A stretch of DNA of 4,443 nucleotides from a virus (lineage: Duplodnaviria > Heunggongvirae > Uroviricota > Caudoviricetes), in IMG/VR virus record IMGVR_UViG_2675903289_000009. One strand, 5' to 3'. Each line of letters starts with the position of its first letter. Position 1 is the stretch's first letter. The notes beneath the pieces are model-generated. The model saw only the letters and a list, made by a program, of their open reading frames with translations, was not told the origin of the DNA and made no database searches. This document shows, piece by piece, positions 410 to 4,443 of this stretch. Made by a program: the position numbers and the translations under genes.

Positions 410-957
410 CGACTTTTACCAGAGAGCAGTTAATAGCTCACGCAGAGGAGACTATTGAAGCACAGAGACTGTGCATACCGGGCACAATCGACCATGACAT
501 CATCCGCACATATAAGATGGATATTGCTGTTCTGGAAATCGCNNNNNNNNNNNNNNNNNNNNNNNNNNNNNNNNNNNNNNNNNNNNNNNNNNNNNNNNNN
601 NNNNNNNNNNNNNNNNNNNNNNNNNNNNNNNNNNNNNNNNNNNNNNNNNNNNNNNNNNNNNNNNNNNNNNNNNNNNNNNNNNNNNNNNNNNNNNNNNNNN
701 NNNNNNNNNNNNNNNNNNNNNNNNNNNNNNNNNNNNNNNNNNNNNNNNNNNNNNNNNNNNNNNNNNNNNNNNNNNNNNNNNNNNNNNNNNNNNNNNNNNN
801 NNNNNNNNNNNNNNNNNNNNNNNNNNNNNNNNNNNNNNNNNNNNNNNNNNNNNNNNNNNNNNNNNNNNNNNNNNNNNNNNNNNNNNNNNNNNNNNNNNNN
901 NNNNNNATTCGATTTGCCGCTGGGGATAAAAACGGTTTGCGGGAAAAGGAGAGTTAA
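406..957 (+). CDS. hypothetical protein, interrupted by a 364-nt N run; 3' end unresolved
   Basis: ATG at 406 in ATGA overlap with the upstream stop; a protein-like N-terminus ([45 protein letters not shown]) runs into the N run at 543. The N run is not a multiple of 3, so the frame after it is unknown; the end is 957 if the frame is kept, 961 in the other open frame. Confidence 0.4.
543..906. other. run of 364 N (unresolved or masked sequence)
   Basis: Literal n characters in the sequence; length not a multiple of 3. Confidence 1.
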
Positions 958-964
958 GTAGAAT
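937..964 (+). promoter_or_regulatory. candidate sigma70 promoter of the hok mRNA (-35 TTGCGG 937-942, 16-nt spacer, -10 TAGAAT 959-964)
   Basis: Hexamers read directly. The predicted start (~971) coincides with GGGTGCTTGAGG, which resembles the 5' end of the plasmid R1 hok mRNA (GGCGCUUGAGG) as I recall it. Confidence 0.4.
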
Positions 965-1020
965 TGCAGCGGGTGCTTGAGGCTATCTGTCTCAGGCATG
1001 AACACCAAAAGGCAGATAGA

Positions 1021-1092
1021 GAAAAGCCCCAGTTAACATTACGCGTCCGGCAAGACGCTTAACATTAATCTGAGGCTCAATCTATGAACGGC
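1021..1092 (-). ncRNA. sok: predicted Sok-like antisense RNA (approximate ends)
   Basis: Predicted start ~7 nt downstream of the - strand -10, near 1092. The transcript would be antisense to the leader ORF GAGG (1072-1075) and ATG (1084). It contains a 9-bp hairpin with one mismatch (UUAAGCGUC-UUGCCG-GACGCGUAA, complement of ~1039-1062). The 3' end is placed at a short U run (complement of 1021-1026); it is not a canonical terminator, so the end is uncertain. Confidence 0.45.
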
Positions 1093-1296
1093 AAATCTAG
1101 GTTAGCCTCTTACGTGCCGAAAGGCAAGGAGAAGCAGGCTATGAAGCAGCAAAAGGCGATGTTAATCGCCCTGATCGTCATCTGTTTAACCGTCATAGTG
1201 ACGGCACTGGTAACGAGGAAAGACCTCTGCGAGGTACGAATTCGAACCGGCCAGACGGAGGTCGCTGTCTTCACAGCTTACGAACCTGAGGAGTAA
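1084..1296 (+). CDS. mok: mok-like leader ORF, here in frame with hok (70-codon ORF giving an N-terminally extended Hok)
   Basis: ATG at 1084 with GAGG at 1072-1075; 19 codons upstream of and in frame with the hok ATG. The alternative frame that would match R1 mok has TAG at 1098-1100 and no start codon. Confidence 0.45.
   Translation: MNGKSRLASYVPKGKEKQAMKQQKAMLIALIVICLTVIVTALVTRKDLCEVRIRTGQTEVAVFTAYEPEE
1099..1127 (-). promoter_or_regulatory. candidate sok antisense promoter on the - strand (-35 TTGCCT = complement of 1122-1127; 17-nt spacer; -10 TAACCT = complement of 1099-1104)
   Basis: Hexamers read from the reverse complement. Their position between the leader ORF start and the hok start, and their spacing, match the R1 sok promoter arrangement as I recall it (TTGCGC - 17 nt - TATCCT). 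Confidence 0.5.
1141..1296 (+). CDS. hok: Hok/Gef family membrane toxin, 51 aa (MKQQKAMLIALIVICLTVIVTALVTRKDLCEVRIRTGQTEVAVFTAYEPEE)
   Basis: ATG at 1141 with AGGAG at 1127-1131. Single hydrophobic transmembrane segment followed by the conserved ...TRKxLCExR...EVAxFxAYE... periplasmic tail typical of Hok (compare R1 Hok [52 protein letters not shown]). Closely resembles HokD/RelF as I recall it. Confidence 0.9.
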   Translation: MKQQKAMLIALIVICLTVIVTALVTRKDLCEVRIRTGQTEVAVFTAYEPEE

Positions 1297-1345
1297 GAGA
1301 CCAGGCGGGGGAGAAATCCCTCGCCACCTCTGATGGGTCAGGCAT

Positions 1346-1358
1346 CCTCAATGCACCC
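1346..1358 (+). promoter_or_regulatory. fbi-like 3' element complementary to the mRNA 5' end (971-982)
   Basis: CCTCAATGCACCC (1346-1358) is the reverse complement of GGGTGCTTGAGG (971-982) apart from one bulged T. This matches the long-range 5'/3' pairing that keeps full-length hok mRNA translationally inert. Confidence 0.6.
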
Positions 1359-1364
1359 ACACTT

Positions 1365-1398
1365 AACCCGCTTCGGCGGGTTTTTGTTTTTATTTTCA
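1365..1398 (+). terminator. Rho-independent terminator of the hok transcript
   Basis: AACCCGC-TTCG-GCGGGTT hairpin (1365-1382) followed by TTTTTGTTTTTATTTT. Confidence 0.85.
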
Positions 1399-1404
1399 AC
1401 GCGT

Positions 1405-1434
1405 TTGAAGTTTTAGATGGTGCCGGAATAGAAT
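1405..1434 (+). promoter_or_regulatory. candidate sigma70 promoter for the downstream rem-like/DUF968/rusA/Q gene string (-35 TTGAAG 1405-1410, 18-nt spacer, -10 TAGAAT 1429-1434)
   Basis: Hexamers read directly, in the 118-nt gap between the hok terminator and the next RBS. Speculative. Confidence 0.3.
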
Positions 1435-1516
1435 CAAAAATACTTAAGTAGCGCGCAGGGAGAAGAGGGATGGACCCCGAACAGGGGAGTGCTATTTATC
1501 TGGAAGGATTCTGTTG

Positions 1517-1798
1517 ATGAAAATCGAAGAATTACGTGAAATTTTTAGTGAAGATGGCCTCTATACTGTGCGCGTTGAGAATGGCGCTATTGTCAGCCAC
1601 TGCCTTCCAGACTACACAATTCTGATAATTCAGCCGTCTTTGCCAGCAGGCACGGGCGGCGCTCTCACGCATTTAAATCTGATTGGTACCAGCATCCCCC
1701 ATGCACTGAAGAACAGGCCGAATGGCTCATTCAGTGTTACCGCAGGCGCGGATGCGAGGTTAAAAAAGCCCTTAGCCTCGACTACCGTCACTGGATAA
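1517..1798 (+). CDS. small hypothetical protein in the rem position (between hok and DUF968); the C-terminal part is probably encoded in the -1 frame (see findings)
   Basis: ATG at 1517 with GGAAGG at 1502-1507. The N-terminal ~40 aa are protein-like (MKIEELREIFSEDGLYTVRVENGAIVSHCLPDYTILIIQP); the later part of this frame is low complexity. A start-less overlapping frame is open from 1579 to TAA at 1870-1872 and looks more protein-like. Confidence 0.5.
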   Translation: MKIEELREIFSEDGLYTVRVENGAIVSHCLPDYTILIIQPSLPAGTGGALTHLNLIGTSIPHALKNRPNGSFSVTAGADARLKKPLASTTVTG

Positions 1799-1873
1799 TC
1801 TCCGTCAGGCTCCCTTACTCCGAACGGCCAACGCGTCCGTCCCGCACATTCCAGCAACGGATCTGGAGGTAAT

Positions 1874-2990
1874 GTGCGGGTATTACTTCGACCTGTTCTG
1901 GTACCGGAACTCGGTCTGGTTATCGTTAAGCCAGGCCGTGAATCAATGTCAGCATTCCATAACGGCAGAATACTGGTGGAGCCGGAACCAAAAAGCATGC
2001 GTAATCTGNNNNNNNNNNNNNNNNNNNNNNNNNNNNNNNNNNNNNNNNNNNNNNNNNNNNNNNNNNNNNNCCGGGGTCGTTCCTGCCGCTCGCCAGCCGC
2101 TGGTGGAAGACAAAACATTGCTGCCGTTTTTCAGTAACGCACGGGTGATTCGTGCTGCTGGTGGTGCTGGTGCATTGTCTGACTGGCTGTTGCGCCATAT
2201 TAAATCCTGCCAGTGGCCACACGGCGATTATCATCACAGCGAAACCGTCATTCACCGTTATGGTACCGGCGCAATGGTGTTGTGCTGGCACTGCGACAAC
2301 CAGCTGCGTGACCAGACATCCGAATCACTCGAGCAACTTGCTCATCAAAACCTGTCAGCATGGATGATTGACGTCATCGGTCACGCAATAAGCGGTACGC
2401 AGGAGCGTGAATTATCTCTGGCTGAATTATCCTGGTGGGCGGTCCGCAATCAGGTGGCGGACGCGCTACCGGAAGCGGTATTACGTCGTTCGCTGGGGTT
2501 GCGTGCGGAAAAAATTCGCTCTGTGTACAGTGAAAGCGACATCATACCGGGAGAGCAGACAGCCACCAGCATACTGAAGCAGCGCACAAAAAATATTGCG
2601 TTACTGCCTCACGTCCACCAGCAACAGAACCCACCACAGGAAAAGACGGTGGTCAGCATTGCCGTTGATCCGGAGTCACCGGCTCAGTATCTCCAGCGCC
2701 AGAAATCACAACGGGAAGAGATGCCTGTATACACGCGCTGGGTAAAAACGCAGAAATGCATGACGTGTGGCAATCAGGCAGATGATCCGCATCACATCAT
2801 TGGTCATGGACTGGGAGGGATGGGAACAAAGGCTGATGATTTGTTTGTTATTCCGTTATGCCGTAAATGCCGTAACGAACTACATGCCGGAGTAAAAGAT
2901 TTTGAAGAGAAACACGGCAGTCAGCTGTTGTTGCTGATTCGTTTTTTAATGCACGCGAGAAATTCGGGTGTTCTGAAGTGGAAAGCATAA
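1874..2990 (+). CDS. DUF968 family protein (YdfU-like) with a C-terminal CxxC...HH...CxxC-N-x2-H HNH-like motif; N-terminus and frame across the N run uncertain
   Basis: After the N run there is a long ORF in one frame ending at TAA 2988-2990, with a C-terminus (CMTCGNQADDPHHIIGHG...LCRKCRNELH) that I recognise as typical of prophage DUF968 proteins. Before the N run the protein-like frame is the GTG-1874 frame (VRVLLRPVLVPELGLVIVKPGRE...), not the ATG-1872 frame used by the ORF track. GGAGG at 1865-1869. Confidence 0.75.
2009..2070. other. run of 62 N (unresolved or masked sequence) inside the DUF968 gene
   Basis: Literal n characters; length not a multiple of 3. Confidence 1.
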
Positions 2991-3371
2991 ATGACCGAGC
3001 GCATAGAATTTGTTTTACCTTACCCGCCGACGGTGAACACTTACTGGCGTCGTCGTGGCAGCACATATTTTGTATCAAAAGCCGGGGAGCGTTATCGCCG
3101 GGCAGTGGCGCTTATTGTTCGCCAGCAGCGGCTGAAATTAAGCCTGTCCGGAAGGTTGGCAATAAAAATTATTGCAGAACCACCGGATAAGCGCCGCCGT
3201 GACCTGGACAATATTCTGAAAGCGCCGCTGGATGCGCTGACGCATGCGGGGTTGCTAATGGACGATGAGCAGTTTGATGAAATCAATATCGTTCGTGCTC
3301 AGCCAGTATCTGGTGGACGTCTGGGGGTGAAGATTTACCCCATAATGCATGAAGAGCAGGTCAAAAAATGA
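2991..3371 (+). CDS. rusA: RusA-family Holliday junction resolvase (crossover junction endodeoxyribonuclease), 126 aa
   Basis: ATG at 2991 directly abuts the DUF968 stop. The protein shares the RusA hallmarks with E. coli RusA as I recall it: LPxPPxxNxY near the N-terminus, PDxRRRDLDN acidic catalytic motif, ALTxAGxxxDDxQ and GGRL near the C-terminus. Confidence 0.92.
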   Translation: MTERIEFVLPYPPTVNTYWRRRGSTYFVSKAGERYRRAVALIVRQQRLKLSLSGRLAIKIIAEPPDKRRRDLDNILKAPLDALTHAGLLMDDEQFDEINIVRAQPVSGGRLGVKIYPIMHEEQVKK

Positions 3372-3637
3372 AACTGGAAGATTTACCGAAATACTACTCC
3401 CCAAAATCCCCTTGCCTGACCGATGCATCGGCCTCAACGTCAAAAGATGCGCTGAGTATCACTGATGTGATGGCCGCGCAGGGCATGACACAGAATCGGG
3501 CTGAGATGGGGGTTTCTGCGTTCCTTGGGAAAATGGGCATTAGTATGAATGACAGAGAGCGGGCAACAGAATTGCTGACAGAATATGCACTCAGTCGGTG
3601 TGATCGCGTGGCGGCGTTAAGAAAACTCCCGGCAGAA
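3368..3637 (+). CDS. late-gene antiterminator Q (phage 21/933W/Qin type), N-terminal 90 codons up to the N run
   Basis: ATG at 3368 in ATGA overlap with the rusA stop. The N-terminus (MKLEDLPKYYSPKSP...TDVMAAQGM...FLGKMGISMND...) matches the conserved N-terminus of this Q family as I recall it (MRLESVAKFHSPKSP...TDVMAA...). It sits in the Q position downstream of rusA. Confidence 0.75.
3511..3637 (+). repeat. direct repeat copy 1 (127 nt of Q coding sequence)
   Basis: Aligns without indels to 3767-3893; I count 12 mismatches in 127 positions. Confidence 0.9.
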
Positions 3638-3766
3638 NNNNNNNNNNNNNNNNNNNNNNNNNNNNNNNNNNNNNNNNNNNNNNNNNNNNNNNNNNNNNNN
3701 NNNNNNNNNNNNNNNNNNNNNNNNNNNNNNNNNNNNNNNNNNNNNNNNNNNNNNNNNNNNNNNNNN
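3638..3766. other. run of 129 N (unresolved or masked sequence) inside the Q gene
   Basis: Literal n characters. Confidence 1.
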
Positions 3767-3893
3767 GTTTTCTGCGTTCCTGGGGAAAATGGGCATCAGT
3801 ATGAATGACAGGGCGCGGGCAACAGAATTACTGGCAGATTATGCACTCAGTCGGTGCGATCGTGTGGCGGCGTTGAGAAAACTTCCGGCAGAA
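3767..3893 (+). repeat. direct repeat copy 2 (127 nt of Q coding sequence), offset 256 nt from copy 1
   Basis: See copy 1. An offset of 256 is not a multiple of 3, so the two copies lie in different reading frames. Confidence 0.9.
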
Positions 3894-4443
3894 ATAAAAC
3901 CGGTAGTGATGCGCATTATGGCTTCGTACGCTTTTGAGGATTATGCCCGCAGCGCAGCGAGTAAAAAGCAGTGCCCTTGTTGCTATGGGGAAAAATTTAT
4001 TGAAAGCGTAGTTTTTACAAACAAGGTCCAGTATCCGGATGGTAAGCCGCCGGTATGGGCAAAGTGTACGAAAGGTGTGTATCCGTCTTACTGGGAAGAA
4101 TGGAAAAAAGTCAGGGAGGTGGTAAAAGTTGCCTGTCCGGAGTGTGGCGGAAAGGGTGAGGTTTCCACCGCCTGTAAGGATTGCCGTGGGCGTGGTGTCG
4201 CCATTCATCGTGAAGAGTCGGTAAAACGTGGTATGCCTGTTATCAGAGACTGCCAGCGTTGTGGTGGTCGTGGCTATGAAAGACTACCATCAACGGAGGC
4301 ATTTAATGCTATATGCGAGGTGACAAACCAGATAACACGCGCGTCATGGGAAAAAACAGTTAAGAAATTCTATGATGCGCTGGTGACTCGGTTTGATATT
4401 GAAGAAGCATGGGCTGAGCGGCAGTTAAAAAAGGTAACTAGGT
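3768..4443 (+). CDS. antiterminator Q, C-terminal portion with four CxxCxG(xG) zinc-finger repeats; continues past the window end; frame is +1 relative to the N-terminal portion
   Basis: Frame open from 3768 to the window end and not in the ORF track. It restarts at FSAFLGKMGISMND..., repeating the pre-gap segment, then continues ...MASYAFEDYARSAAS...CPCCYGEK...CPECGGKG...CKDCRGRG...CQRCGGRG...SWEKTVKKFYDALV...KKVTR, which parallels 933W-type Q proteins as I recall them. Confidence 0.8.

Follow-up and report, generated by a model that had tools for sequence, protein, structure and literature searches.

A frame jump between two small genes of a Qin-like prophage is very probably the scar of a 250-bp deletion that joined them out of frame

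The window, i.e., the whole stretch of 4,443 nucleotides (nt) analyzed in this work, derives from a lambdoid, Qin-like prophage. The region studied here lies among the following genes:

1084-1296, hok-type toxin (taken from the list of open reading frames, ORFs)
1517-1872, plus strand, region with the remnants of rem and of a gene for a 92-residue (aa) protein, between the hok-type toxin and DUF968
2991-3371, RusA, between DUF968 and antiterminator Q
from 3368, antiterminator Q

This order is the one found in the Qin prophage of Escherichia coli K-12, namely hokD, rem, (a 92-aa ORF), DUF968/ydfU and antiterminator Q. Both small ORFs of the hokD-rem-ydfU segment are intact in K-12, whereas both are broken in the window; moreover, Qin is devoid of the rusA gene that the window carries between DUF968 and Q. 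The Qin Rem protein is 44% identical, in an alignment that takes in the out-of-frame part of the fused ORF described below, and the Qin 92-aa ORF is 78% identical to the window remnant. On the upstream side, the Hok-family toxin ORF is listed at 70 aa from ATG 1084, and the annotated HokD homologue has 51 aa and starts at ATG 1141. Just 5' of the Rem remnant, a GC-rich hairpin followed by a T-run (cccgcttcggcgggtttttgttttt, 1370-1395) resembles an intrinsic terminator.

Two overlapping frames are open between the hok-type toxin and DUF968. The zero frame runs from ATG 1517 through 93 codons to TGA 1796-1798, as a preliminary description of this DNA had reported, with TTG 1514 as a possible alternative start. 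In the -1 frame, no stop codon interrupts the 97 codons between 1579 and TAA 1870-1872; a frame scan verified that this frame holds no ATG, GTG or TTG, and it offers nothing better than the near-cognate codons CTG 1600, ATT 1729, ATA 1795, ATC 1798 and ATC 1861. The probability of about 1% that had been assigned to 97 stop-free codons is likewise accurate, (61/64)^97 being 0.0095. Within these frames, the following elements are distinguished:

1517-1604, plus strand, 5' remnant of a Rem-like gene (PHROG 340 / Pfam Rem), with the first 29 codons and one further base
1604/1605, plus strand, deletion junction; 250 bp of relatives are absent between these bases, according to alignment with a complete E. 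coli genome (L001) and two IMG/VR contigs (L018 and L019)
1605-1872, plus strand, 3' remnant of the 92-aa gene (PHROG 1212), from the third base of codon 4 through codon 92 to TAA
1517-1798, plus strand, chimeric ORF of 93 aa, with 29 Rem residues followed by 64 out-of-frame residues through the 92-aa gene

That both frames carry real coding sequence was established with PHROG profiles, whose matches divide at the junction. On the zero frame, phrog_340 matches residues 1-29 only (profile positions 13-41 of 85, E = 4.9e-7), and the same profile matches the intact L001 protein with E = 1.3e-22. Conversely, phrog_1212 matches the -1 frame with E = 7e-35, and the impression that this frame encodes a real protein was therefore right, the protein being a member of the 92-aa family. 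The protein-like stretch of the ATG frame had been estimated at ~40 codons; Rem homology stops after codon 29, at window position 1604. The fused product bears the label PF27490:Rem in precomputed Pfam annotation, and it does not give a match over the full length of the Rem family (PHROG 340 / PF27490, ~83-86 aa). The PHROG label of both families, 340 and 1212, is "unknown function"; searches of the local Pfam-A and NCBIfam libraries yielded no usable match for either small protein, and a sub-threshold match to GvpM (E = 0.037, 13.7 bits versus a cut-off of 109) was taken as noise.

The preliminary description rested on the premise of one gene lying in two frames, and the relatives speak against it, as they carry two separate neighboring genes. 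When window positions 1400-1900 were compared by megablast with 5,426 complete E. coli genomes, every full-coverage match came in two pieces, spanning 751 nt rather than 501 nt. In the best match, E. coli 2011C-4251 (L001), PGAP annotates two CDSs here, encoding the hypothetical proteins WP_077625879.1 (86 aa) and WP_032156506.1 (92 aa), the second lying 69 nt after the first and ending just before DUF968. The pairwise alignment of the window with L001 contains a single 250-nt gap in the window, between 1604 and 1605. Furthermore, the contigs L018 and L019 are 100% identical to window positions 907-1604 (698 nt) and 1605-2008 (404 nt), and the sole difference across those blocks is the presence of 250 extra bases between them. 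An intact parental allele with identical flanks is thus at hand, differing from the window by the missing segment alone, and the deletion allele is reproducible across independent assemblies. No microhomology was found at the breakpoints in the comparison of the window with L018/L019, and no insertion sequence (IS) at the junction itself.

The deleted segment starts with GTATTAAATG... and finishes with ...GGAGAAAGCCGATGGCGCAAAA; it contains Rem codons 30-86 plus the stop codon, a 69-nt spacer with a GGAG ribosome-binding site, and the initial 11 nt (ATGGCGCAAAA) of the gene for the 92-aa protein. On its left side, the Rem remnant 1517-1604 differs by one base from the 5' end of the WP_077625879.1 CDS and is 100% identical to L018/L019; PGAP starts the intact L001 homologue at a TTG equivalent to window position 1514. 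The intact Rem-like protein of 86 aa reads MRIEELREIFSEDGLYTVRVENGAIVSHC/RIKCLQ... (the slash marks the junction), and the window shares its residues 1-29. On the right side, the intact 92-aa protein reads MAQN/SRLHNSDNSAVFAS...QQRIWR, and the -1 frame of the window from 1606 on aligns to its residues 5-92. The translation of this remnant is 100% identical to residues 5-92 in L017-L019, and 78-92% identical to the other homologues, K-12 Qin included. The window therefore has no complete 92-aa CDS with its own start upstream of DUF968: the deletion has taken the ribosome-binding site of this gene and its codons 1-3, ATG included. As 250 equals 3x83+1 and is no multiple of 3, the reading frame changes exactly at 1604/1605, and the -1 frame is start-less, stop-free and protein-like because the deletion left the authentic 92-aa frame without a start codon.

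In our view, the frame jump is very probably the scar of this 250-base deletion, which joined two neighboring prophage genes out of frame, and does not reflect programmed frameshifting. From the Qin-like prophage, the event removed the two-thirds of the Rem-like gene that lie toward its 3' end, the spacer together with the ribosome-binding site, and the beginning of the 92-aa gene. The Rem start codon now reads 29 authentic codons and then the wrong frame of the 92-aa remnant, up to a chance TGA at 1796-1798, and the authentic 92-aa frame persists as a long start-less open frame to its original TAA. Both small genes are inactivated, with no part for recoding, and the chimeric 93-aa product is probably functionless. 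This reading meets no contradiction in the data. A 1-nt deletion producing a pseudogene had been among the options considered before: the mutational origin and the pseudogene status hold, and the size does not, the actual loss being 250 bp. Likewise, homologues contiguous in one frame and differing by a single-base indel had been envisaged, and the relatives show instead two genes and 250 additional nt.

The direction of the change is not given by the indel alone, and the short form could in principle be ancestral, the relatives having acquired a 250-bp insertion that split one gene in two. The 92-aa gene was characterized among its homologues. All 80 intact IMG/VR loci (80/80) have a 279-nt CDS starting with ATG, and the spacer from the Rem-like gene measures 69-70 nt at those loci where the upstream Rem-like gene was matched. 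In a set of 32 non-identical nucleotide sequences of the 92-aa gene, the three codon positions contain 26/26/61 variable sites, and the median pairwise dN/dS is 0.17. A homologous-protein search with the 92-aa protein returned 155 clusters, nearly all of 90-92 aa and from Escherichia or Shigella. The intact 92-aa gene is real, conserved and under purifying selection. These data leave the insertion scenario scarcely any probability: the long form comprises two ORFs that are complete from start to stop codon, the second one preceded by a ribosome-binding site that is visible in L001 and L018; its two genes match independent PHROG families; it spans divergent prophages down to 74-78% identity, K-12 Qin included; purifying selection covers the full length of the 92-aa gene, first codons included; and the short form is confined to one near-clonal sequence set. 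Taken together, the intact ATG loci, the K-12 Qin arrangement, the purifying selection and the 155 homologue clusters indicate that the two-gene state is ancestral and that the window carries a deletion.

In K-12 Qin, the 92-aa ORF lies intact between rem and ydfU, on the minus strand (L016 3307-3585; NC_000913.3 1644306-1644584). It is absent from the RefSeq feature table consulted; PGAP annotates members of the family elsewhere, and the family is widespread in Escherichia prophages. This ORF between rem and ydfU thus represents a real, conserved gene under selection, and the K-12 annotation table used here lacks it. Regarding its structure, the AlphaFold2 model of residues 5-92 has a mean pLDDT of 68, with a beta-alpha-beta-beta core at ~85 and a disordered N-terminus. 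A PDB sequence search with the 92-aa protein gave no relative, and Foldseek of the model against PDB gave nothing at E <= 0.001; against BFVD, the best match was Orf QD1 of phage N15 (E = 3e-3), which is uninformative on function.

Programmed -1 frameshifting is known in bacteria and phages from dnaX (A_AAA_AAG), from the transposases of IS1 and IS3, and from the lambda tail assembly chaperone G/GT (G_GGA_AAG). In true programmed frameshifts, homologues retain both the heptamer and the two-frame architecture, and homology switches frame at the slip site. The window resembles these systems in that two frames overlap, the upstream one containing an X_XXY_YYZ heptamer and the downstream one lacking a start codon; it differs from them in that its homologues are two genes, the switch precedes the heptamer by 68 nt, and the heptamer is polymorphic. 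Two heptamers are involved:

1672-1678, plus strand, T_TTA_AAT in the zero frame, read as GCA TTT AAA TCT (A F K S) in the 92-aa frame
1762-1768, plus strand, A_AAA_AAG in the zero frame, read as GTT AAA AAA GCC (V K K A) in the 92-aa frame

The former was confirmed to lie in the zero frame (codons TTA and AAT) and to lead into the open -1 frame, as previously described. The latter, which is of the heptamer type most prone to shifting in E. coli and had not been listed before, also leads into the -1 (92-aa) frame and is identical in intact L001. From the frequency of X_XXY_YYZ in the window (24 in 3864 positions), 93 codon boundaries should by chance include ~0.58 heptamers of this form.

Under programmed -1 frameshifting at T_TTA_AAT, which had been listed among the alternatives, a single Rem-like gene would give rise to a functional trans-frame protein. 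The motif is indeed a formally valid X_XXY_YYZ in the zero frame that leads into an open frame lacking a start codon, and the core of PHROG 1212 (residues 27-92 of the 92-aa protein) starts right at the heptamer. However, the homology switch is at 1604/1605, so a shift at the heptamer would still leave 24 out-of-frame residues. In addition, the downstream frame is a separate ATG-started CDS in 80/80 intact relatives, which accordingly lack a two-frame architecture. The heptamer itself, for which conservation in homologues had been put forward as a check, proved to be a synonymous variant: TTCAAA is present in 71/85 loci and TTTAAA in 14/85, TTT and TTC being a Phe polymorphism. TTTAAA also occurs in intact two-gene loci (L017-L019, L022-L023, L025, L043 and L077), in which the Rem frame closes before this position. 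As for a stimulatory structure, a test that covered nested folds gave the 82 nt at 1679-1760, a stretch that is coding in relatives, a minimum free energy of -27.9 kcal/mol (z = -1.60), a stability matched by 16 of 200 shuffled sequences. A heptamer is also close to what chance supplies in an ORF of this length, and efficient shift motifs in E. coli are of the form X_XXA_AAG, the best heptamers reaching only ~0.3% without a stimulator (Sharma et al. 2014, PMC4066793). Judged from the sequences of the intact relatives, programmed frameshifting at this site is effectively refuted, and we regard its probability as minimal. Both T_TTA_AAT and A_AAA_AAG are fortuitous, being part of the coding sequence inherited from the 92-aa gene.

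A weaker version of the idea is that the deletion allele yields a little chimeric protein, with part of the 92-aa protein and residual function, through adventitious -1 slippage at a low level, either at T_TTA_AAT or at A_AAA_AAG, the stronger of the two. Each of these heptamers lies in the zero frame of the fused ORF, from which a slip would enter the authentic frame, and most heptamers are measurably shift-prone even without stimulators (PMC4066793); trace slippage could therefore take place at 1672-1678 or 1762-1768, with no evident function. Nevertheless, the expected yield is about 0.3% or less in the absence of a stimulator (PMC4066793), the product would hold 24-53 nonsense residues, and a shift at 1762-1768 loses the first strand and the helix of the core predicted by AlphaFold2. 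Moreover, both heptamers are already present in the intact gene and hence give no sign of selection for them. A functional role for such slippage seems to us very unlikely. Its more specific form, in which slippage at T_TTA_AAT would join the Rem N-terminus, 24 nonsense residues and the complete 92-aa core (27-92) into a low-abundance chimera with residual or new activity, must be considered less likely again. Two inactivated genes, with a frame change produced by the deletion, remain our preferred reading.

The distribution of the deletion allele was also examined. The exact fused 93-aa ORF occurs on 679 contigs, and all source names listed for it, those of its cluster included, correspond to Shigella sonnei (for instance, FORC11_1990 and A0A8B4CJ38_SHISO); it is listed in 965 index blocks, which include contigs >4.8 Mb. 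Window positions 1517-1872 are 100% identical in independent S. sonnei assemblies, and the junction is present in 6 IMG/VR contigs. In the 5,426 complete E. coli genomes, an 80-nt junction probe found no contiguous match; in genome contig scans, a 30-nt junction pattern gave no match and an 18-nt pattern only chance matches in unrelated taxa. The deletion allele is fixed in S. sonnei, and the window itself almost certainly belongs to a draft scaffold of this species. Some NCBI records of this species (L097-L099, 3001-3356) give a gene range of 356 nt, equivalent to window 1517-1872, with a recorded product of 93 aa, which suggests that annotators drew a single gene across both remnants. Titles retrieved from the literature on rem/ydfU/Qin and on S. 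sonnei pseudogenes (only titles were consulted) included none on this locus.

These same data bear on the suspicion of a sequencing or assembly error, either a miscall in CCCCC at 1696-1700 or a misassembly. The window is a gapped scaffold whose runs of N have non-homologous lengths and whose right end is duplicated and divergent, which lends the suspicion some substance. However, the sequence of 1517-1872 recurs unchanged across independent S. sonnei assemblies, 4.8-Mb contigs included, as well as in the IMG/VR contigs with the junction; the CCCCC run is the same in the intact relatives, where it is in frame and encodes the conserved H-P-P-C; and the difference from the relatives amounts to 250 bp and not to 1 nt. 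The identical fused ORF on 679 contigs excludes a sequencing error, and an artifact of either kind retains next to no likelihood as the origin of the frame jump.

The deletion scar finds close parallels in the deletion remnants of cryptic prophages of Shigella and E. coli, products of reductive genome evolution, in which a lineage-specific internal deletion likewise takes the end of one gene and the beginning of the following one, together with the sequence between them, and leaves an out-of-frame fusion. They also share its fixation in a host-restricted pathogen lineage, here S. sonnei, and the presence of an IS3-family element nearby. No difference in kind is apparent; the deletion mechanism is not evident, the breakpoints being free of microhomology and IS. 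The feature is an ordinary lineage-specific deletion pseudogene. In S. sonnei chromosomes, an IS3-family transposase pair (HTH_Tnp_1 + rve; L099-L101, 416-1572) lies ~1.4 kb upstream of the fused ORF, and it stands where L097/L098 carry other genes. An IS3-family insertion near the fused ORF is typical of IS-driven prophage erosion.

For sequence interpretation, this locus provides a cautionary example: a long, start-less and protein-like frame beside a slippery heptamer mimics recoding, and here it is a truncated neighbor gene exposed by a deletion. With respect to annotation, the S. sonnei 93-aa "hypothetical protein" is best treated as the remnant of two genes.

Downstream of the remnants, the gene for DUF968 has its own initiation signals:

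1865-1876, plus strand, Shine-Dalgarno sequence GGAGG (1865-1869) and GTG start (1874) of DUF968

A TAATG overlap had been taken as the DUF968 start region; the true start is GTG 1874, located 1 nt after the TAA and preceded by GGAGG. The PGAP start of the L001 DUF968 CDS (2225) corresponds to window position 1874, and the ungapped L015 has a GTG-started DUF968 ORF of 352 aa (1780-2838). An alternative start at ATG 1872, giving a 372-aa ORF, was rejected as an artifact: the 62 N at 2009-2070 replace 4 nt (CCGT) of ungapped relatives such as L015, which makes the frame appear shifted by +1. DUF968 keeps its own GGAGG and GTG, and its translation is probably essentially unaffected by the upstream loss.

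The runs of N at 543-906, 2009-2070 and 3638-3766 do not preserve length (for instance, the 364 N at 543-906 take the place of 265 nt), and frames across these gaps are therefore unreliable. After the third run, 3769-3890 repeats 3513-3637, the sequence preceding that run. Positions 3769-4443 are only ~95.5% identical to S. sonnei-type contigs that elsewhere match the window at 99.6-100%, and the right end of the window looks like a scaffold join of two paralogous antiterminator-Q copies.
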